37,809 bases of DNA from a virus (taxonomy: Duplodnaviria > Heunggongvirae > Uroviricota > Caudoviricetes): the IMG/VR virus record IMGVR_UViG_2602041644_000008, positions 1-37,809 of that record, one strand, 5' to 3'. Below the pieces are notes generated by a model. The model worked only from the letters and a program-made list of their open reading frames with translations, was not told where the DNA came from and did not search any database. This document shows positions 1 through 10,307 of the stretch, piece after piece. Numbering within the stretch: the first letter of the stretch is position 1; the number at the start of each line of letters is the position of its first letter. Both the position numbers and the translations under genes were made by a program.

Positions 1-516
1 ATGAAATTTAAAAAATGTCTTCTGCCTGTGGCAATGTTAGCGTCATTCACTCTGGCAGGATGCCAGTCAAATGCTGATGATCATGCCGCCGATGTTTATC
101 AAACCGATCAACTGAATACCAAACAAGAAACTAAAACCGTTAATATTATTTCCATTCTTCCCGCAAAAGTTGCCGTAGACAACTCCCAAAATAAACGGAA
201 CGCACAAGCCTTCGGCGCGCTTATTGGTGCAGTCGCTGGCGGTGTAATCGGCCACAACGTGGGGTCTGGCAGCAATTCCGGAACGACGGCAGGTGCAGTT
301 GGCGGCGGAGCTGTTGGCGCGGCAGCGGGTTCTATGGTGAATGATAAAACCTTAGTGGAAGGTGTTTCTCTAACGTATAAGGAAGGCACCAAAGTGTATA
401 CCTCTACCCAGGTGGGTAAAGAGTGCCAGTTTACGACAGGTTTAGCCGTTGTTATTACCACGACGTATAACGAAACGCGTATTCAGCCAAATACGAAATG
501 TCCTGAAAAGAGCTAA
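1..516 (+). CDS. Host outer-membrane lipoprotein with glycine-zipper (YcfJ/SlyB-like) domain
   Basis: Signal peptide with lipobox (LAGC); Gly/Ala-rich zipper segment GAVAGGVIGHNVGSG typical of 17-kDa surface antigen/YcfJ-like lipoproteins; lies outside the phage gene block. Confidence 0.6.
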   Translation: MKFKKCLLPVAMLASFTLAGCQSNADDHAADVYQTDQLNTKQETKTVNIISILPAKVAVDNSQNKRNAQAFGALIGAVAGGVIGHNVGSGSNSGTTAGAVGGGAVGAAAGSMVNDKTLVEGVSLTYKEGTKVYTSTQVGKECQFTTGLAVVITTTYNETRIQPNTKCPEKS

Positions 517-531
517 TGATCAGGAGGAGTC

Positions 532-1071
532 ATGAAGAAAGTTTTTCTTTGCGCCATCTTAACCTCCTTAAGCTATCCGGCTATCGCCTCATCATTGCAG
601 GATCAACTCTCTGCTGTCGCAGAAGCGGAACAGCAAGGTAAAAATGAAGAGCAAAGGCAGCATGACGAATGGGTCGCGGAGCGCAACAGGGAAATCCAGC
701 AAGAGAAGCAACGTCGCGCAAACGCCCAGGCCGCCGCTAACAAAAGAGCGGCAACGGCAGCGGCAAATAAGAAAGCTCGTCAGGATAAACTGGACGCCGA
801 AGCCACTGCGGACAAAAAACGCGATCAAAGTTATGAAGATGAGCTACGCAGCTTAGAGATTCAGAAACAAAAACTGGCGCTGGCGAAAGAAGAAGCCCGC
901 GTTAAGCGAGAAAACGAATTTATCGATCAGGAACTGAAGCACAAAGCTGCGCAAACCGATGTGGTGCAATCTGAAGCTGACGCAAACAGGAATATGACTG
1001 AGGGCGGTCGCGATCTGATGAAAAGCGTGGGCAAAGCAGAAGAGAACAAATCGGACAGCTGGTTTAATTAA
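532..1071 (+). CDS. Host secreted coiled-coil protein of unknown function
   Basis: RBS AGGAGG 7 nt upstream; N-terminal signal peptide; charged Ala/Lys/Glu/Gln-rich coiled-coil body; followed by a strong terminator. Confidence 0.55.
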   Translation: MKKVFLCAILTSLSYPAIASSLQDQLSAVAEAEQQGKNEEQRQHDEWVAERNREIQQEKQRRANAQAAANKRAATAAANKKARQDKLDAEATADKKRDQSYEDELRSLEIQKQKLALAKEEARVKRENEFIDQELKHKAAQTDVVQSEADANRNMTEGGRDLMKSVGKAEENKSDSWFN

Positions 1072-3301: not shown

Positions 3302-3586
3302 TCAAATATAGAAATAAACACCAAAACAAACAGTAACAGGAACAACAAAGTCAAACAGGCTTCCAACATCCCATACGCGCGGATCAAAACCGCCCCACCA
3401 CGGCATGTTCATACGCTTGCCATGCCCGAACATTTCAATCCAGCGATATTCTGCCTGGGTGTGTTCACGCGCAATGAAGAACGTACAACCAGCTATCGCT
3501 CCATAAGCCCAGTTTCCGGTAAAAAGGCCAATCAGTACCTGCGAAGCCACAGCACAAAACGCATGAAGGAAAGGTGTTATATCCAT
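3302..3586 (-). CDS. Small integral membrane protein of unknown function
   Basis: Start at 3586 has a good SD (AGGAG, 5-nt spacer); 94 aa with hydrophobic helices; sits between tailspike and lysis cassette. Confidence 0.4.
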   Translation of the reverse strand: MDITPFLHAFCAVASQVLIGLFTGNWAYGAIAGCTFFIAREHTQAEYRWIEMFGHGKRMNMPWWGGFDPRVWDVGSLFDFVVPVTVCFGVYFYI

Positions 3587-3620
3587 TATCGCTCCTTTAA
3601 CATAAGGATAAATAAACACT

Positions 3621-5936
3621 TCATAAAATAGATTTCGTCTTTGTAACAATAATATCTACAAAATCACCTGCAGATATAGCTGATGGTACTGTATCTGCAA
3701 GAGTAATCTTTTCTGAAGAGATGTTTTGCACATCTAATAATTTATTTTCAACCCCATCCGTATATACCAATTTGACATCACTGAATGGAGGGTAATAAGT
3801 GACTGTTCCTTGGTATACATATATTTCAATGCCTGAAATTGATTTCACTACATACCTGCCCCTTACAAGATTAATTTTGAGTTCAGATAAATCGGTTTTA
3901 TAACAGGTAATTCCTGAACCAATGTTAGCCATACTAATATCAGTATCACTATAATAAGTAATTGCTTTTCCTTGTTTTAAGGTGAAGTTATCTTTGCTTT
4001 TCCTTGGCAAGGATGTGCTATTTTTGTAATATCTACCAGTTAAGCATAGCCATGAAAATGCAGTATTCGCTACATTACCACCAGAATACACAGCTAAACG
4101 AATTGCACTAACTGGAACCCCTTCATTATTAATCCTGATCTTAATGGAAGAAATGTTAGCAACAGTAGCATATCTATGGTTAGATGAATCCCATTGCATA
4201 GAAGAAGTTATTGCTTCTGTTTGTGAAGTTATGACATTCCCATCTCCATCTAATGCATACAGGTAAATGCGAAACGATGCCGTATCTGCTGAGAATGTAA
4301 ACATATCACCATTTCTTACTGGTACATCTCCAGATTCCCATAACAACCCAAAATTCCGCATAAAAGCAAACTTAGAAGAAACTAGGTGACGGATATTATA
4401 TAAACCATCTACATCTGTTTGATATGCTAATACACCAACTTCTCCATTGTTGGCACTGGATATAAATGGGGTGTTAGCATTTAAAGAAAACAATGTTACT
4501 TCATCGGATATATTTTCCTGAACATGAAATACTGCATTCCCCTTGCCATTATCAGTTACCTCTACATAAGTGTAAGGTGATGGATTGTATGGTTCATTTG
4601 TATAGTAAGGAGAACTTAACCATGAAGCCTCAATTGAGTTATTCCACGTATATTCACCAAAGTTAATTATCAACTGTTGGTTAGTTGGGGATGATGGATA
4701 TCGTTCAAAACGAAACCCGTAGAAGTAATTGTTATCACCTCTTTGAATATCAATTTTACCTGCCCCCTCCATAGTTCCACCATAAAACTTATTGTGGTTA
4801 TGATGATATGGATTATCAGCGAAAATTATATTATTCGTACGATTCAGATAAAAATAGTTTTCATTTATCCATCCGTTCTCAACTCCAAGAAAATGAATTG
4901 TATCGACCTTTTTCAGGTTAAAGGTTGAGTATGCTATTGAATAATCCGTCGATGCCACCGAAGCATTATAATTTGCATATAACTGTAAGTAGTCGCAACG
5001 CTCAATGTTTATATGCTGCCCTTTTGCCCCGATAATACGAATATCCGGTGTCGTTTCAGATGAAATACCAGAATTTCTGATAATCGTTCCGAAGTTTTGT
5101 CTTGGGTTGTTAGGGTTTGATGCATTCCCGCCAAGCAATACCCCTATTCCTGAGTGGGATATGGTAAAAACAGCATTGGTCATTTCGAGGCTGACATTAC
5201 GAAGATTTAATGTCTCCGTAATAATAAAATTACCTTCCGCTCGTAATGTTCTGGATGATTCTCGTGCATATTCTGCAGCCAGGATCAATGCAGATGTATC
5301 ATCTGTTATACCATCGCCTTTTGCCCCAAAATCGCAAACACTAACGGTGTCTCTCATCTTATCCTGGAACGTTCGGTATACTGCTCCAGAACCATACTGA
5401 ATAAACCAACCAAAACCACCAACAACCCCGGCGATTGCAGCATCGACATAATTACGCATTGAGCGATTATTTACAGCGTCCTGCTCAAGTGATGGATCTG
5501 CAAGGTTAGAAATTTTGTTTTGCTTTGCATCGTAATATTTTGCAAGCAAAGATGGTTTCATCAATGCACGTCTGAACCACCCAAAACATTGCTGGATCAG
5601 CATCGTCAGGTAGTCAAAAGCATCTTCATGCACTTCGGGGAAAAATTTTCCCTGATTGCGAAGATCTGTCTCCTGCACTACATCAAGCACACGATCTATC
5701 GTAATTCGCCAGCCAGCAGCAAGCGGAGACGGCAGAACCACTGAACCGCCACTATAAGTGCCCGCCCCAGTTACCGTATAACCGGTATCCAGAACCAATT
5801 CTGTTACGTTCCCGTTCAGGTCAGACACCTGAACAACCAGGTCTGATTTTCTGAAAATTCGAAAAGTATACGGAAACGATGTCGTAACGCCGTTACCTGT
5901 GTATTCGTTGTGGTCAACTTCGGTTGAGACCGTCAT
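3621..5936 (-). CDS. Tailspike protein with beta-helix (pectate-lyase-like) depolymerase domain
   Basis: N-terminus (YTGNGVTTSFPYTFRIF) resembles podovirus tail-fiber/tailspike particle-attachment domains; central motif CDFGAKGDGITDDTSAL is the hallmark of pectate_lyase_3 tailspikes; markedly AT-rich. Confidence 0.8.
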   Translation of the reverse strand: MTVSTEVDHNEYTGNGVTTSFPYTFRIFRKSDLVVQVSDLNGNVTELVLDTGYTVTGAGTYSGGSVVLPSPLAAGWRITIDRVLDVVQETDLRNQGKFFPEVHEDAFDYLTMLIQQCFGWFRRALMKPSLLAKYYDAKQNKISNLADPSLEQDAVNNRSMRNYVDAAIAGVVGGFGWFIQYGSGAVYRTFQDKMRDTVSVCDFGAKGDGITDDTSALILAAEYARESSRTLRAEGNFIITETLNLRNVSLEMTNAVFTISHSGIGVLLGGNASNPNNPRQNFGTIIRNSGISSETTPDIRIIGAKGQHINIERCDYLQLYANYNASVASTDYSIAYSTFNLKKVDTIHFLGVENGWINENYFYLNRTNNIIFADNPYHHNHNKFYGGTMEGAGKIDIQRGDNNYFYGFRFERYPSSPTNQQLIINFGEYTWNNSIEASWLSSPYYTNEPYNPSPYTYVEVTDNGKGNAVFHVQENISDEVTLFSLNANTPFISSANNGEVGVLAYQTDVDGLYNIRHLVSSKFAFMRNFGLLWESGDVPVRNGDMFTFSADTASFRIYLYALDGDGNVITSQTEAITSSMQWDSSNHRYATVANISSIKIRINNEGVPVSAIRLAVYSGGNVANTAFSWLCLTGRYYKNSTSLPRKSKDNFTLKQGKAITYYSDTDISMANIGSGITCYKTDLSELKINLVRGRYVVKSISGIEIYVYQGTVTYYPPFSDVKLVYTDGVENKLLDVQNISSEKITLADTVPSAISAGDFVDIIVTKTKSIL

Positions 5937-6040
5937 GTTAAATCTCCAGATAGTCGCAGCACCCGTTGCGCCGCATATCTGGTTATTCTATTACCCAAAA
6001 AACCATATATGGATAGAAAGACTGTGAATATGAATAGATA

Positions 6041-6055
6041 TTACCTTTCAGGTAA
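6041..6055. promoter_or_regulatory. Operator-like palindrome TTACC-TTTCA-GGTAA (copy 1 of 13)
   Basis: Perfect inverted repeat with A/T flanks, intergenic between the tailspike start and the small antirepressor-domain gene. Confidence 0.6.
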
Positions 6056-6092
6056 TTTGCAAAACGTGCTGGATAGCAAACAAATTATTTGC

Positions 6093-6112
6093 TACTGTAT
6101 AAATATACAGTT
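6093..6112. promoter_or_regulatory. LexA (SOS) box
   Basis: TACTGTATAAATATACAGTT versus consensus TACTGTATATATATACAGTA (CTGT-N8-ACAG intact); 21 bp upstream of the ATG at 6133. Confidence 0.65.
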
Positions 6113-6132
6113 ATTGCATGGAGAAGATTAAG

Positions 6133-6390
6133 ATGCAGCAGTATCACTATCCACTGGAAGACGGATTTACCGAAAGGATTCACACGCCGGGAGGCGTCAG
6201 GTCACTGGTGGAGGGATCGCACTTGATGAAATTACTCCGGGATCTCGATAAGGATGGATTTAATGTCGATGGCCCACTTGCCGAACTGACTGCACTGATT
6301 AACTACGTCACCAGCTCACAGATGTCTATGCAGGATCTGCAAACACATCTCGACTATTGTGCCGAACAATTACGAAAACAAACCACATAA
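6133..6390 (+). CDS. Stand-alone antirepressor C-terminal domain protein (candidate SOS-induced antirepressor)
   Basis: SD GGAG upstream of the ATG at 6133; 85 aa; clearly alignable with the C-terminal ~80 aa of the BRO-N antirepressor at 7536-8228 (IHTPGGV..LMKLL..DG..V.GPLAELT...Y......L.DLQTH). Confidence 0.55.
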   Translation: MQQYHYPLEDGFTERIHTPGGVRSLVEGSHLMKLLRDLDKDGFNVDGPLAELTALINYVTSSQMSMQDLQTHLDYCAEQLRKQTT

Positions 6391-6396
6391 AGAAAA

Positions 6397-6412
6397 GGCC
6401 GCTAGAGCGGCC
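6397..6412. terminator. Bidirectional terminator between convergent genes
   Basis: GGCCGC-TAGA-GCGGCC hairpin with T-rich flanks on both strands; overlaps the stop of the minus-strand gene. Confidence 0.5.
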
Positions 6413-7140
6413 TATCGTTTCGCTTTGTGCTCGTCCCAGCACGTTTTGCACCATGCCATTAAGCCATCCGCATTTTGATTATTAGGGTAAAAGCTGGTTC
6501 GTTTTCTGCGGACATTACAAATTGGGCACCACTTCATATGGCGTGTATTCTTTGGACCATCGAGACACCTTGCACACCACTTAGTCAATCCATCTGGATT
6601 TTTTGACGATTTCCTGAATTTTTCATATGGAAGGTTTATTCTGCATCGCAAGCACTGCTTGCTACCACTTGAAACTCTGTTAGCTGATTCTTCTTTTGGC
6701 GGCGATACAGAAGGTATTCTTGCTGGCTCTGATACTGCCTGAGGTGCTTTTTTAGATGACTGAGACGATATGTCATCACCAGGGAATCGTCCATGATATG
6801 CCGGACGCGTTGACACTCCAGGTGGAAGCTCTGCTGTAAATGGCTTTGGCTGAATCAGTTGCCTCTCTTTTGCTAACTCCTGCTGTTTATAATATGTCTG
6901 GATTACCGCACTATCATAAGCAGGAGGTGCGGAAATATTAGGCGCATTACCTCCAGTTTTTTGAAACTGAGTAGAGGTGTGTTCTATCACCTGTGTACGA
7001 TTAATCGTTATCTCCCCATCTTCGGTCTTTATCGTTTTGTTATGATTAACGACCGTACGATCAGAGATCTTAGTCTTGTTCTGGTTGATAACATAAATAA
7101 TCACCGCAACCACACCAACAACTATCCAGAAAACTTCCAT
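6412..7140 (-). CDS. Membrane-anchored protein with two C-terminal zinc-ribbon-like repeats
   Basis: N-terminal TM helix, Pro/Ser-rich linker, then two repeats of C-x2-C ... DGL-x3-WC-x2-C; AT-rich gene; no family recognised. Confidence 0.5.
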   Translation of the reverse strand: MEVFWIVVGVVAVIIYVINQNKTKISDRTVVNHNKTIKTEDGEITINRTQVIEHTSTQFQKTGGNAPNISAPPAYDSAVIQTYYKQQELAKERQLIQPKPFTAELPPGVSTRPAYHGRFPGDDISSQSSKKAPQAVSEPARIPSVSPPKEESANRVSSGSKQCLRCRINLPYEKFRKSSKNPDGLTKWCARCLDGPKNTRHMKWCPICNVRRKRTSFYPNNQNADGLMAWCKTCWDEHKAKR

Positions 7141-7160
7141 TGCTTTTCCTCACAATAACA

Positions 7161-7175
7161 TTACCTTAAAGGTAA
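7161..7175. promoter_or_regulatory. Operator-like palindrome TTACC-TTAAA-GGTAA (copy 2)
   Basis: Perfect inverted repeat 21 bp upstream of the minus-strand gene start (7140). Confidence 0.6.
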
Positions 7176-7253
7176 TATCTTGCTTTCAGGTGATCAAGCG
7201 TTAAACGCAATCAACCAAATAAGGTTGATTTTAATATTTCTTCGCGTTTATCA

Positions 7254-7268
7254 TTACCTTTTAGGTAA
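7254..7268. promoter_or_regulatory. Operator-like palindrome TTACC-TTTTA-GGTAA (copy 3)
   Basis: Perfect inverted repeat at the start of the structured leader upstream of the antirepressor. Confidence 0.6.
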
Positions 7269-7535
7269 ATTTACATCGCACTCCTCTTGTGCCATAGTAA
7301 TTGGGCACTGGCAAAATCCAGTGCCGGGATTGGTCTCCCGGATTACTACAGAGGCACATATGCCGCATAAGCGGTTTTTTTATGTGTAAAGCGCACCTAT
7401 TCTATGGTGAGCTGTGTGGGGGCACCGAAAGGTGCGCCGGGTTCCTTTGTAGCCGGTAAGACCAACTCTGCACAGTTCACCACCATCTGATTGGTCTCAG
7501 CGGTGGTGATTAACCTAACTACAAAGGTGATCGCC

Positions 7536-8228
7536 ATGAATACCAAACCTTCCATCTTTTCCTTTGAGTCATCCTGCCAGATCCGTATGTTCATGATTGA
7601 CGGAGAACCTTGGTTTGTCACCAAAGATGTGTGCAATGCTTTGAATATTGATGTTACACAAGCGAGAAAACTTGATAAAAAAGGCTGGAACAAAAAGGGG
7701 CTGTATTCAATACAGACCCCTGGTGGAATACAAGAACTATCCATCGTTTCAGAATCAGGTCTCTACATCCTTATTCTGCGTTGCAAAGAGGCAATGACAG
7801 AGGGAACGAGAGCGTTCAGATTTCTTGAATGGGTTACAGGTGAGGTTCTTCCTCAGATCCGCCGCACCGGAAGTTACATTAAAAACTCGCTCCCGCAGGA
7901 AGAACGCATAAAGATGGTTGCCGACCAGGTAGCCAACGCCACAGCATCAGCAATGATGCAGGCAATGAAGATAGAGAACAAAACCTACAGTGCCCCACTG
8001 AAGCCCGGCTACCGTAGCCTGATTCATTCTCCGTCTGGTGTTCTCGGCCTGACGGAGAACTCACTGCTGATGAATCTGCTGAACCAGTTACAGGAAGACG
8101 GGCACGATGTATCGGGCGCGGCGGCGGAGCTGACCACCATGTTCTGCTACATCGTCGGTGTGAGCAAATGCCTGCGTGATATCCAGACCCACGCGGAGTA
8201 CATCAACGACAAAGCAGGATTCTTCTGA
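7536..8228 (+). CDS. Antirepressor with N-terminal BRO-N domain and C-terminal antirepressor domain
   Basis: SD AAGGTGA before the ATG at 7536; N-terminal region (IRMFMIDGEPWFVTKDVCNAL ... GLYILILRCKEA ... FRFLEWV) matches the BRO-N fold pattern; C-terminal domain paralogous to the small gene at 6133-6390. Confidence 0.65.
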   Translation: MNTKPSIFSFESSCQIRMFMIDGEPWFVTKDVCNALNIDVTQARKLDKKGWNKKGLYSIQTPGGIQELSIVSESGLYILILRCKEAMTEGTRAFRFLEWVTGEVLPQIRRTGSYIKNSLPQEERIKMVADQVANATASAMMQAMKIENKTYSAPLKPGYRSLIHSPSGVLGLTENSLLMNLLNQLQEDGHDVSGAAAELTTMFCYIVGVSKCLRDIQTHAEYINDKAGFF

Positions 8229-8236
8229 CGGGCGGC

Positions 8237-8258
8237 GGCACAGGGATGTGCCTTTAAA
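8237..8258 (+). terminator. Putative terminator downstream of the antirepressor
   Basis: GGCACA-GGGA-TGTGCC hairpin followed by TTTAAATAATT. Confidence 0.4.
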
Positions 8259-8300
8259 TAATTCTGTACAGATTGCAGACCGGGGGTGAATAGCGTACTA

Positions 8301-8315
8301 TTACCTTAAAGGTAA
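8301..8315. promoter_or_regulatory. Operator-like palindrome TTACC-TTAAA-GGTAA (copy 4) with adjacent promoter
   Basis: Perfect inverted repeat directly after a candidate -35 TTGCAG / 17 bp / -10 TACTAT; 43 bp upstream of the 8358 cassette. Confidence 0.6.
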
Positions 8316-8357
8316 ACCTGTTTTTATTTTATACCTGTAACTTACCGGAGATTAAAG

Positions 8358-8684
8358 ATGACAAAACTTGGATTCGTGATGAGAGGTCCGGTAAGAAGCG
8401 GAACTCATGCAAAGCGTAGCAAGAGTCGTATTTTTACTGGTAAGGTTGTAGCACGTAAATCAGCTATTGGCTCGTTCAATAGTGAAAATGCGGCATTGCG
8501 CCATATTTTTATCAGCACAAAGCCAAGAGCATCCGCTGATGTGCATACAATGTCTATTCCTATCACAAAGAATATCAAGCGGATAAAAAAGCTCTCATCT
8601 GCAGAATCAAAAGAGATATCTTTCCGCCAGCTTAACTCATTAGAAACGCATATGAAGGAAGAGGAATTCGATGTTTTTGAGTGA
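8358..8684 (+). CDS. Small basic protein, putative antitoxin/partner of the YafO-like gene
   Basis: SD GGAG 8 nt upstream; 108 aa, Lys/Arg-rich N-terminus, acidic C-terminus; 14-nt overlap with the downstream gene (translational coupling). No homolog recognised. Confidence 0.4.
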   Translation: MTKLGFVMRGPVRSGTHAKRSKSRIFTGKVVARKSAIGSFNSENAALRHIFISTKPRASADVHTMSIPITKNIKRIKKLSSAESKEISFRQLNSLETHMKEEEFDVFE

Positions 8685-9183
8685 GTATAGCGGGAAGGTT
8701 ATACCTACTGGTGAGTTTAAAACTGATGACTTTCTGATTTCGCTAAAAGATGCTTTTAAACAACACTGGCGTCATGGTCATCATCCTGATCTGGGAAAAG
8801 ATACTCTTTTTGAAAGACCAGACGAAGTATTAGGCTTCCATCTCAGAAAGGTTCATGTCAATATTGGTGAATATGCATCATATTCATACTCATGTACTGA
8901 ACAGTGTTGGGATGAGTGGTCATATGGATTGATTGATGAACAAGGAAATTACAGGCCAAAACCAACCAGTAACGCATATCTCATATATGCAGTCAATGAA
9001 ATAAGAGATGCAGCCTTACTAGCTTATTGGGACCCGCCCGCACACACCAAAGCTAACGCAAAAGTTTGGATGGATTCCGTATTGAATTTCACAAAATTAT
9101 TTCATGAACGAACTAATACAGCTCCACTTAGTAGAAATGTTTATCCGTGGGATTATTCGTACAAATCCAAAAAGCCTGCATAG
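8671..9183 (+). CDS. YafO-family toxin-like protein (putative ribosome-dependent mRNA interferase)
   Basis: Strong SD (GGAAGAGGAA); segments LGKDTLFE, LRKVHVNI and YLIYAVNE...ALLAYWDPPAHTKA resemble recalled YafO motifs (GRDALYD, ERVAHIHL, HLVYCQG...WLLIAILKPEPHKLA). Recall-based; needs HMM confirmation. Confidence 0.45.
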   Translation: MFLSEYSGKVIPTGEFKTDDFLISLKDAFKQHWRHGHHPDLGKDTLFERPDEVLGFHLRKVHVNIGEYASYSYSCTEQCWDEWSYGLIDEQGNYRPKPTSNAYLIYAVNEIRDAALLAYWDPPAHTKANAKVWMDSVLNFTKLFHERTNTAPLSRNVYPWDYSYKSKKPA

Positions 9184-9264
9184 TAGTTTTTTATGGACGA
9201 AACAAAAGTCAGTGCTACACTCATTGACGCCACATTGAGGTGGCTTATAGATGGAAATTTCACA

Positions 9265-9426
9265 ATGAAAAAAGCATTTGCTGCACTGTTCGTTTTGTTG
9301 TCTCTGGTAGCTTCAACTCAGGCCTTTGCCGGTCGTTGTCAGCACGACAGCGATACTGCCGCTGACGGCTCCCGCTGCGGTGGGCGTTCTGCGGATTCCC
9401 GCCCGGGCGGCGGTGGCATTCGTTAA
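9265..9426 (+). CDS. Small secreted Cys-containing peptide
   Basis: MKKAFAALFVLLSLVASTQAFA signal peptide, then ~31-aa Gly/Arg/Asp-rich mature peptide with two Cys; weak RBS. Confidence 0.3.
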   Translation: MKKAFAALFVLLSLVASTQAFAGRCQHDSDTAADGSRCGGRSADSRPGGGGIR

Positions 9427-9432
9427 AAACAA

Positions 9433-9448
9433 GGCCGCGAAAGCGGCC
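9433..9448. terminator. Bidirectional terminator
   Basis: GGCCGC-GAAA-GCGGCC hairpin with T-rich tracts on both strands; between convergent genes. Confidence 0.55.
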
Positions 9449-9455
9449 TGTTTGA

Positions 9456-10307
9456 TCACTGTGCAGTTTTCGCTGATCGATTTTCAGCTCTAAATTCAAG
9501 AACCGTTTCAATATTTCTTTCCTTCAGCATATCAATAACATTTTTATTCACTTGACTATCACTGGTTAATAACTGGTAAACGTTGCTTCTCTCTTTATCA
9601 GAGTTTTCTTTAACAGCTGCTTTGCATGCCAAATGCTTATTGAAATTTTCTACATCGCTAGTACAGGAATTTACGGCTGCTGATGAAATATCAGACGCTG
9701 AAGAAACACCATCATCCAAACGTTTTATAGCATTTTCTATACATGAGTTAAGGGAATAAACGACAACTGAGCGATACCCTTCAGACGCACACCATTCTAA
9801 ATTTCTTGAAGGATCGAGTGGTTTTACTTCGCTGGATTGAATTAACTTGTCAAAAACTGACTTATATTCAATCTGTTTTTTATCTATAGCCCATACTTCA
9901 GTAGCTGATTTATAATTCCCCGTATGCCTATTAACATCAAATCCATGTTTTATAAGCAAATCTGCCCATGAAAGATTTATTGATTCATTGTTATGAGGCC
10001 ATTTTCCTGTCAGAACCGCCCCCATAGACCCCATATATCCGCCATATGATGGTATAGCACCATGGCTCAGTAACTTCTCAGCAACCACAGGGCAATTAAT
10101 TACATAAGAGGCGTAAAGCCCATTCCATAAAGCCCCTCTATAGTAATCGCCACGATTAGGTTCTTTTAAGTCGATAGCCTTTGATAATTGTTCACACGTT
10201 TTGCATGCATCAAAGTTATCCTTATTGCATTGCAATGAACTGGCAGCTGTAGGATTTACAGAGACTATTGAAAGCACTATGCCAAAAAACAAATTTATTT
10301 TTTTCAT
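9456..10307 (-). CDS. Secreted Cys-rich protein of unknown function
   Basis: Sec-type signal peptide; about ten Cys; AT-rich; start overlaps the stop of the upstream internal virion gene, so it is in the late operon. Confidence 0.5.
   Translation of the reverse strand: MKKINLFFGIVLSIVSVNPTAASSLQCNKDNFDACKTCEQLSKAIDLKEPNRGDYYRGALWNGLYASYVINCPVVAEKLLSHGAIPSYGGYMGSMGAVLTGKWPHNNESINLSWADLLIKHGFDVNRHTGNYKSATEVWAIDKKQIEYKSVFDKLIQSSEVKPLDPSRNLEWCASEGYRSVVVYSLNSCIENAIKRLDDGVSSASDISSAAVNSCTSDVENFNKHLACKAAVKENSDKERSNVYQLLTSDSQVNKNVIDMLKERNIETVLEFRAENRSAKTAQ

Follow-up and report, generated by a model that had tools for sequence, protein, structure and literature searches.

Which surface polysaccharide would the tailspike encoded at positions 3621–5936 recognize, does it digest that polysaccharide, and how much of the gene was acquired by exchange? 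A sequence-only reading of the 37,809-nucleotide stretch of viral DNA analyzed here (the window) had described this gene as an AT-rich β-helix tailspike, likely an O-antigen or capsule depolymerase that sets host range.

Tailspike gene and prophage backbone

The minus-strand open reading frame at 3621–5936 encodes 771 amino acids from an ATG start codon. PHROG 18162 ("tail fiber protein") matches the product over its full length, and RefSeq annotations of E. coli genomes include the same 2316-nt coding sequence, at 97.4–99.9% identity to the tailspike gene. The gene and its surroundings are divided as follows.

3621–5936, minus strand: tailspike gene, 771 amino acids plus stop codon (open reading frame and translation, PHROG 18162, RefSeq coding sequence).
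5328–5936, minus strand: N-terminal virion anchor, residues 1–203, an adaptor of the phiV10/epsilon15 genus type (nucleotide identity, PHROG, PDB match).
5286–5336, minus strand: CDFGAKGDGITDDTSAL, N-terminal cap motif of the β-helix (Pfam PF12708 at residues 198–221; same motif in solved tailspikes and in GH55 and GH28 enzymes).
4482–5327, minus strand: predicted right-handed parallel β-helix, residues ~204–485, the presumed catalytic domain (AF2, Foldseek, invariant columns).
3624–4481, minus strand: β-rich C-terminal region, residues ~486–771 (DSSP of the model; pLDDT mostly ~90).
3585–3620, minus strand: intergenic spacer within which the exchanged segment ends on its 3′ side (homology ends).
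3302–3584, minus strand: small membrane-protein gene downstream, 94 amino acids, with its ATG at 3584 after AAGGAG; part of the backbone, outside the exchange.

The anchor is 96–98% identical at the nucleotide level to those of phiv142-3, EC.W1-9, and ZX5, and 74% identical to those of epsilon15-type Salmonella phages. Many PHROG tail families match the tailspike at residues 1 to ~170/220 only, and a PDB sequence search pairs the anchor with the N-terminal domain of the Dpo31/Dpo36 tailspikes (E = 9e-35). The Uetakevirus anchor has been delimited as the first 205 amino acids (PMC10408124). The window is 95.7–97.7% identical to EC.W1-9, phiv142-3, phiV10, and TL-2011b over 48–84% of the 24 kb compared, and its gene order is that of the prophage at yfgI of E. 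coli AST20. Sequence comparison thereby identifies 3621–5936 as the tailspike of a phiV10/epsilon15-like prophage inserted beside yfgI. The phiV10/epsilon15 (Uetakevirus) spikes have the same anchor, the same genome position, and a single spike per virion, but their receptor-binding part is unrelated and their targets are O antigens. The protein would be the single tailspike of a temperate podovirus, with residues 1–203 fastening a presumably trimeric spike to the tail.

A 115-residue, TTG-started open reading frame overlaps the 3′ end of the tailspike gene and is probably an over-extension of the 94-residue downstream gene. PHROG 1443 matches it at residues 22–115 only, and the small gene is annotated as a 285-nt coding sequence in strain AST20. 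It belongs to the backbone and is 87% identical in EC.W1-9.

Exchange of the receptor-binding module

Base composition breaks inside the tailspike gene. The whole gene has a GC content of 38.6%, with 45.6% in the anchor part (5328–5936) versus 36.1% in the receptor-binding part (3621–5327), where GC3 is 27%. No other 1.7-kb stretch in the window has a GC content as low as that of the receptor-binding part (z = −3.2); the rest of the prophage has 48.5% and the structural block 49.9%. The gene and its neighbors had been described as markedly AT-rich, which holds for the receptor-binding part, whereas the neighbors are just moderately AT-richer, with 43.1% GC at 3302–3649 and 44.2% at 5937–9455.

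The limits of homology place the exchange more precisely than composition. Homology to the nearest phage, EC.W1-9, stops at nucleotide 641 of the gene and resumes in the backbone at window position 3583, 38 nt past the tailspike stop codon. The gene matches the tailspikes of P22-like prophages at 96–99% identity from nucleotide 610 as far as the stop codon, and homology to the P22-type tailspike (98.8%) runs from nucleotide 610 to 4 nt past the stop (window 3617). The 5′ crossover zone is thus window 5296–5327 (gene nucleotides 610–641) and lies within the GAKGDGITDDT cap motif. These breakpoints, beside the composition, bear out the proposed acquisition by exchange, but they narrow its extent: the first 203 codons and the neighboring "accessory" genes are phiV10-like backbone, and by sequence comparison the exchanged segment covers codon ~204 to the stop codon only. 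The receptor-binding cassette, from GAKGDGITDDT to the stop, would have entered the backbone by recombination at the short conserved cap-motif sequence and at the gene end.

The P22-like (Lederbergvirus-type) E. coli prophage spikes that carry this receptor-binding part, such as WP_282650561.1 of strain E200086, differ in their PF09008 head-binding anchor, their prophage family, and their argW integration site. They are annotated as "phage head-binding domain-containing protein". The module protein is also 92–94% identical in a lytic phage resembling phage Pollock; homologue P0008 (92% identity to the module) lies on a contig 97.8% identical to Pollock. Near-identical modules stand behind three unrelated anchors, namely phiV10-type, P22 head-binding, and PF18668 (the Pollock-like lytic phage), and the anchors among all module homologues include PF09008, PF18668, PF12571, PF22337, and PF27114. 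Prophages of two families carry the module, integrated at yfgI, at argW, and apparently at a third site. Tailspike modularity and the exchange of receptor domains are already well established, and the general finding is ordinary. The exchange mapped here, precisely from cap motif to stop codon, connects phiV10-like, P22-like, and phage Pollock-like phages.

Predicted β-helix and conserved groove residues

The translation confirms the CDFGAKGDGITDDTSAL motif, at residues 201–217 (window 5286–5336), and the Asn/Ser/Thr/Tyr-rich region that had been noticed with it. These four residues make up 34% of positions 204–485 and 32% of positions 486–771, whereas they account for 17–26% of six further large structural proteins encoded in the window. 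Two confident AF2 models contain the β-helix that had been read from this composition: residues 170–771 were modeled with a pLDDT of 87.8, and a domain model of residues 190–490 reached a pLDDT of 90.7 and a pTM of 0.89. The predicted helix spans ~280 residues and not the entire Asn/Ser/Thr/Tyr-rich region, so the early description is qualified on this point. The β-rich region of residues ~486–771 would form accessory domains, presumably serving to assemble the trimer, to bind glycan, or both.

Every significant Foldseek match in the PDB and BFVD is a right-handed β-helix tailspike or enzyme, including K2-2 TSP, Dettilon, CBA120 TSP4, Depo32, DpK2, GH28, AlgE4, and RbmB. The best BFVD match is to a protein of Pasteurella phage F108 (33% identity; TMt, the TM-score normalized to the target, 0.73). 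The architecture predicted here, a right-handed β-helix with an N-terminal cap and C-terminal β domains, is that of Dettilon gp208, K2-2 TSP, Depo32, DpK2, CBA120 TSP4, and the Phi92 gp150 colanidase, but the solved β-helix depolymerases are only 9–15% identical, with TM-scores of about 0.25–0.5 and active sites that cannot be aligned. TM-scores of the whole model are low because it has several domains, and the separate β-helix domain model also matches at fold level, with TM-scores up to 0.5. Such matches, at fold level only, with TM-scores of 0.3–0.5 and 10–15% identity, do not distinguish a hydrolase from a lyase.

In Pfam and PDB, the protein and a profile built from 42 sequences matched the cap motif alone, and no catalytic domain or catalytic residues were returned; these sequence and profile searches likewise gave no significant catalytic-domain match to CAZy GH28 or known polysaccharide-lyase families. 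PF12708 aligns with residues 198–221 only, at 18.2 bits and below the cut-off of 27, and homologues P0031 and P0036–38 have a precomputed PF12708 match. The motif caps the helix at its N-terminal end and is not an active site. Within the helix, residues W356, N358, E359, Y377, N380, N382, R409, and E411 are invariant in 41–42 homologues, and H379 and E390 are nearly so. The conserved polar groove of the β-helix (residues ~204–485), including E359, N380/N382, R409/E411, and E390, would bind and cleave the host surface polysaccharide and so bring the virion to the outer membrane.

Homologues differ in how much of the module they share. Environmental non-phage homologues (P0030–P0043) cover 32–66% of the query, in the helix half only; the C-terminal region, which they lack, occurs in phage homologues. 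The nearest relative from an isolated phage is that of Vectrevirus PDP21P3/P6 (49% identity). The capsule type A depolymerase of Pasteurella phage PHB02 (gp17, or Dep-ORF8), which acts on a hyaluronan capsule, is the sole experimentally tested relative. It aligns over tailspike residues 173–770 at 31% identity (E = 5e-76), retains the invariant residues, and keeps the helix motifs GW(I/V)NEN, HNHN, EG, and RFER. The whole receptor-binding part is thus homologous, but Dep-ORF8 has a T7-type anchor and comes from a phage of another host genus. Recombinant Dep-ORF8 formed translucent spots on 31 of 31 P. multocida type A strains and none on capsule-deficient mutants (PMC6090149). This end-to-end homologue, an experimentally supported capsule depolymerase, favors the proposed depolymerase function for the spike. 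A fiber that only binds a glycan or protein receptor is highly improbable: homology assigns no catalytic residues and the Pfam match is sub-threshold, as would suit a binder, but the line of invariant Glu, Asn, Arg, His, and Tyr residues is kept down to 25–30% identity, also in the helix-only non-phage homologues, and Dep-ORF8 clears capsule in spot tests.

O loci, K loci, and the candidate substrate

The O antigen is the classical receptor for the backbone genus and for P22-like phages, and many O-serogroup-specific receptor-binding domains are reported in these genera (PMC10408124). The top structural matches of the model include the O-antigen tailspikes of Dettilon, CBA120 TSP4, Sf6, and HK620. 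All this would suit an O-antigen-specific endoglycosidase like those of epsilon15, phiV10, P22, Sf6, and HK620, with a module that recognizes the host O polysaccharide. The O locus was typed in six lysogens by reading the gnd–galF region. The loci were O166, the O17/O44/O73/O77/O106 family, the ABC-transporter-type O99, and an untyped rfbBDAC-type locus carried by a P22-type lysogen. In the lysogens with the three named O loci the modules are 98.3–99.9% identical, yet those loci are unrelated; with the rfbBDAC-type lysogen included, module identity is at least 96%. The O antigen is probably not the target because three or more named O types, plus a fourth untyped locus, occur among the lysogens, and it was rejected on this mixture. 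phiV10 has the O-acetyltransferase gene oac, whereas a scan of 20 large open reading frames of the window turned up no gene for O-antigen modification, and no such gene adjoins the spike. An O-antigen endoglycosidase is accordingly a quite improbable account of the module, and of the two targets first proposed for it, O antigen or capsule, the K antigen is favored by the mixed O loci and by the K4-family kps loci that the lysogens share. A Uetakevirus receptor-binding-protein subtype that occurs across several O groups has been described, with the K antigen suggested as its target (PMC10408124).

Of 15 complete E. coli genomes that carry the module, 14 have K4-family kps loci, defined by a KfoC chondroitin polymerase. 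Overall, such loci occur in at most 110 of 5426 genomes (≤2%), for a Fisher p of 1e-23 that ignores kinship and the sampling bias of complete genomes. The authentic K4 locus used as a query contained an IS element, which made the count of 4896 matching genomes meaningless, and the analysis relied only on the 20 records in which coverage reached 80% or more. The association is a correlation across module-bearing complete genomes. The lysogens with these mixed O loci have kps region 2 genes in common, down to the protein accessions. The region encodes GalE/KfoA, a UDP-glucose dehydrogenase, and a protein homologous to the chondroitin polymerase of K4 (PDB 2Z86, 1129 bits). Further lysogens have either the K4 locus proper (KfoC, 1455 bits) or a related locus of KfoC type. 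The four loci of the K4 family are not alike, with KfoC identities of 56–86% between them and one locus without the epimerase, and a single specificity across all four is therefore an assumption.

Shared lineage and sampling could also create this association, in which case the spike would bind or depolymerize a different glycan or receptor, for instance colanic acid, the enterobacterial common antigen (ECA), or the core. Strain W46 is the exception among the 15 genomes: its module is 96.7% identical, and its kps region 2 is unrelated and encodes a CDP-glycerol glycerophosphotransferase. The pheV island of W46 is also that of E-1246, a K4-like strain, which shows that lineage effects do occur, and AST20 and PS_131_S11 are related strains that share the whole island. 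The lysogens examined have intact wca clusters, the cap motif weakly matches PHROG 6117 ("colanic acid degradation"), and Foldseek matches the Phi92 colanidase. These last two matches, however, touch the generic cap or fold only, and colanic acid and ECA are near-universal in E. coli and cannot give 14 of 15 versus ≤2%. The module also spans two prophage families, strains with four O loci and differing pheV islands, and four subtypes of the K4-family locus. Colanic acid was rejected as a substrate as too universal, and we consider another glycan or receptor unlikely.

The AT-rich half of the tailspike thus most likely digests a chondroitin-like, K4-family capsule and not O antigen, as judged from homology and locus co-occurrence. 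Among group 2 capsules, one of the K4 family is proposed as the substrate, its chondroitin-type GlcA-GalNAc backbone being polymerized by a KfoC enzyme, and the spike would restrict the phage to K4-like encapsulated E. coli. Hyaluronan (GlcA-GlcNAc), on which Dep-ORF8 acts, and chondroitin are distinguished only by which hexosamine epimer they contain. We assign a probability of about 0.6 to the complete explanation, a modular phiV10/epsilon15-like spike with a swapped β-helix module and a K4-family capsule substrate.

The module is a concrete candidate for a K4/chondroitin-type capsule depolymerase, and no report of a K4-specific phage depolymerase or of K4-family specificity was found in the literature searched. 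More tentatively, at slightly less than even odds, it would be the first identified phage enzyme for K4-family capsules and, with Dep-ORF8, would define an uncharacterized family of β-helix depolymerases for glycosaminoglycan-like capsules, outside the known hydrolase and lyase families and carried as a cassette among temperate and lytic coliphages. If the assignment is true, the enzyme could be used to type the K4-like capsules of extraintestinal E. coli or to strip them off, and could be a new tool for chondroitin-like polysaccharides. A spike on an "O-antigen-type" temperate podovirus that tracks capsule type instead would also caution against reading the O serogroup from prophage tailspikes. 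The K1 endosialidases and the K5 lyases KflA and ElmA are likewise K-antigen-specific enzyme modules on interchangeable anchors; the tailspike follows the same modular logic, with no sequence relationship to them detected.

Composition and predicted fold of the tailspike

The window opens with E. coli sequence and the remainder is prophage.

1-1071 (+), E. coli yfgH and yfgI
3621-5936 (-), tailspike gene, ATG start, 771 residues

The prophage is 95.7-97.7% identical to EC.W1-9, TL-2011b, phiv142-3, HEMP4, and phiV10 across 48-84% of the 24 kb compared, and strain AST20 carries an equivalent prophage at the same yfgI site. The lysis-gene side of the prophage adjoins yfgI, as in AST20, and the integrase end seemingly lies beyond the window end. 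The tailspike gene occupies the single-tailspike position of phiV10-like relatives, flanked on one side by the antirepressor/moron region (BRO-N and others) and on the other by the lysis cassette. PHROG 18162 ('tail fiber protein') matches the protein end to end, and about 15 further tail PHROGs match its first ~160-270 residues only. Residues 1-203 are the genus-type anchor, with nucleotide identities of 96-98% in phiv142-3, EC.W1-9, and ZX5 and ~74% to epsilon15-type Salmonella phages. The anchor also resembles the N-terminal domain known from Dpo31/Dpo36 tailspike structures (E = 9e-35). Pas et al. placed the end of the Uetakevirus anchor at residue 205 (PMC10408124).

GC content breaks inside the gene, from 45.6% in the first 609 nt to 36.1% in the remaining 1707 nt (GC3 = 27%), compared to 48.5% for the prophage outside the gene. 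The 1707-nt part is the most AT-rich 1.7-kb stretch in the window (z = -3.2), which confirms the AT-rich tailspike gene proposed in the sequence-only reading. That reading also described the neighboring genes as markedly more AT-rich than the structural genes; the flanking genes are 43-44% GC, an AT excess that is only moderate.

The CDFGAKGDGITDDTSAL motif (residues 201-217) caps the β-helix at its N-terminal end and is the sole part of the tailspike recognized by Pfam and PDB sequence searches, with a Pfam score below threshold. An AlphaFold model of residues 170-771 built from 42 homologs had a mean pLDDT of 87.8, and a model of residues 190-490 (pLDDT 90.7, pTM 0.89) consists of a cap helix followed by short-strand rungs as in a β-helix. 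Foldseek matched the models to right-handed β-helix proteins only, so the β-helix fold first proposed from the sequence is borne out by structure prediction. The PDB matches were the tailspikes and depolymerases Dettilon tailspike, K2-2 TSP, CBA120 TSP4, Depo32, DpK2, Sf6, and HK620 and, among enzymes and others, GH28 polygalacturonases, AlgE4, and RbmB. These matches (probability ~1.0, TM 0.25-0.5, identity 9-15%) are too distant to choose between a hydrolase and a lyase. The BFVD matches were 'pectate lyase superfamily' tail proteins, led by one from Pasteurella phage F108 (33% identity; TMt, the TM-score normalized to the target, 0.73). The predicted β-helix extends over approximately residues 204-485, and residues ~486-771 are modeled as additional β-rich domains. 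Asn, Ser, Thr, and Tyr make up 34% of residues 204-485 and 32% of residues 486-771, compared to 17-26% in six further large virion proteins encoded in the window. Twelve columns are invariant among 41-42 homologs, including W356, N358, E359, Y377, N380, N382, R409, and E411, and H379 and E390 are nearly invariant. The spacing of the invariant residues at about one rung suggests that they line one face of the helix.

Exchange of the receptor-binding module

The receptor-binding module runs from the GAKGDGITDDT cap motif to the stop codon (gene nt 610-2316). Homology to EC.W1-9 is continuous through the upstream region, ends at gene nt 641, and restarts 38 nt past the tailspike stop codon, where the next gene begins with its ATG. 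In strain E200086, the P22-like prophage at argW has a tailspike with the P22 head-binding domain, and this tailspike gene is 98.8% identical from nt 610 to 4 nt past the stop. The two homologies overlap over the 32 nt coding for GAKGDGITDDT. These breakpoints are direct evidence for the acquisition by exchange suggested earlier, and they confine it to the module; the anchor part was not exchanged, and the neighboring genes are phiV10-like backbone. In EC.W1-9 itself, the phage with the closest backbone, another receptor-binding part (L003 5001-6875), annotated 'eliminase', is joined at the same motif.

The whole gene is present at 97-99.9% identity in 6 of 5426 complete E. coli genomes, and nt 610-2316 alone, at 96-99% identity behind a P22-type anchor, in 9. 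Approximately 490 more have a partial match, mostly the anchor end fused to other modules. Protein-database entries place the module behind PF18668, PF12571, PF22337, and PF27114 N-termini as well. One such homolog (P0008, 92% identical, PF18668 anchor) is on a 60-kb contig (L024; Logan SRR6474912, 1-13050) that is 97.8% identical to lytic phage Pollock. The overall GC of this contig (~36%) matches that of the module, so the donor lineage may have been a low-GC lytic phage.

In lytic genera, Pas et al. reported that conserved recombination motifs surround the receptor-binding domains, which was not the case in Uetakevirus or Lederbergvirus prophages (PMC10408124). Here the β-helix cap motif serves this purpose, at least for the phiV10-like/P22-like pair. 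The variant spike of N1131 and 20AR0300 (genome matches H32 and H33) matches at ~89% identity through gene nt 1-1422 and diverges beyond it, which suggests that exchange has also occurred between the helix and C-terminal domains.

K4-family capsule as the candidate target

The sequence-only reading left the substrate as either O antigen or capsule. The O-antigen loci of the six lysogens read are mixed, which makes O antigen an unlikely common target.

O-antigen loci of the lysogens
O166: JNE070796, AST20
O17/O44/O73/O77/O106 family: PS_131_S11
O99, ABC-transporter type: E-1246, fS10a
rfbBDAC-type O locus: E200086

The group 2 capsule loci agree where the O loci differ, making a K4-family capsule the likely target on the basis of lysogen co-occurrence. 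K4-family loci are found in 14 of 15 module-bearing genomes compared to at most 110 of 5426 overall (odds ratio ~775, Fisher p = 1e-23, uncorrected for relatedness). Shared ancestry could inflate this association because AST20 shares its pheV island with PS_131_S11, and W46 with E-1246. The kps region 2 protein accessions of AST20, PS_131_S11, and E-1246 are identical, yet the E-1246 pheV island is unlike that of the other two. W46 is the sole exception, with a CDP-glycerol glycerophosphotransferase in region 2, and its capsule possibly switched after lysogeny. W46 (L021, NZ_CP163115.1 4244673-4250123) has a P22-type spike with a 96.7% identical module, and its kps region 2 is of the glycerol-phosphate type.

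Locus A, the one shared by AST20, PS_131_S11, and E-1246 (region 2 GC = 33%), codes for a two-domain glycosyltransferase of 689 residues. This enzyme has 73% identity to authentic KfoC and a score of 1129 bits in comparison with PDB 2Z86, the chondroitin polymerase of E. coli K4. Locus A also codes for a UDP-glucose dehydrogenase, an epimerase of GalE/KfoA type, and a KfoG-like transferase. At ≥99.9% identity it occurs in 18 of 5426 complete genomes, 9 of which carry the module. The related locus B of EC11 and MS14385 has a KfoC 86% identical to that of locus A, and N1131 and 20AR0300 combine locus B with the diverged spike. The authentic K4 locus is found in 23CRST013 and PEC011 (KfoC, 1455 bits against 2Z86), where region 2 holds an IS3-family element. 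The KfoC-type locus of S87 is a fourth kind (56% identical) and lacks the epimerase. Across the four related region 2 arrangements (L016 32415-40527, L017, L018, and L022), KfoG and UDP-glucose dehydrogenase are 96-98% conserved and KfoC is 56-86% identical; region 2 is 33-35% GC compared to 50% for region 1. The polymers of the four loci may differ.

The nearest isolated-phage relatives are Vectrevirus PDP21P3/P6 (49% identity) and the tail fibers of Pasteurella multocida phages PHB02, Pa7, Pmp1, and F108, which are ~31-36% identical over 76-100% of the module. PHB02 gp17 is Dep-ORF8, and the recombinant protein gave translucent spots on 31/31 capsular type A strains and none on capsule-deficient mutants (PMC6090149). 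Dep-ORF8 aligns with tailspike residues 173-770 and keeps the invariant motifs. Hyaluronan, the Dep-ORF8 substrate, differs from chondroitin only in the hexosamine epimer, and the Dep-ORF8 homology and K4-locus association therefore cohere.

Another Uetakevirus receptor-binding-protein subtype spans several O groups, and a K-antigen receptor was suggested for it by Pas et al. (PMC10408124). 'K4-like' loci are known as a family from earlier work (PMC13171598), and none of the literature searched reported a phage enzyme that acts on them. The tailspike class itself is well known; the K4-family capsule as its substrate is a new and directly testable hypothesis.

Other prophage genes

3302-3649 (-), 115-residue TTG-started ORF overlapping the tailspike 3' end
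6118-6390 (+), 90-residue ORF
6412-7140 (-), 242-residue protein, between tailspike and antirepressor
7491-8228 (+), BRO-N antirepressor
9456-10307 (-), 283-residue ORF, second AT-rich island (36.9% GC)

The TTG-started ORF is probably an over-extension; translation likely begins at ATG 3584, which follows AAGGAG, and yields a 94-residue hydrophobic protein (PHROG 1443). The 90-residue ORF and the antirepressor C-terminus both match PHROG 450 and PHROG 15539, so the ORF may be an antirepressor C-terminal domain that was duplicated or split off. The 242-residue protein belongs to PHROG 6762 (function unknown), and its C-terminal part has weak endonuclease VII and Lar-like zinc-ribbon matches. 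The 283-residue ORF, directly downstream of the gene for the 1129-residue internal virion protein, matches PHROG 6118 (function unknown) and no Pfam family. Its region is 99.5% conserved in EC.W1-9 and is occupied by other genes in the AST20 prophage.
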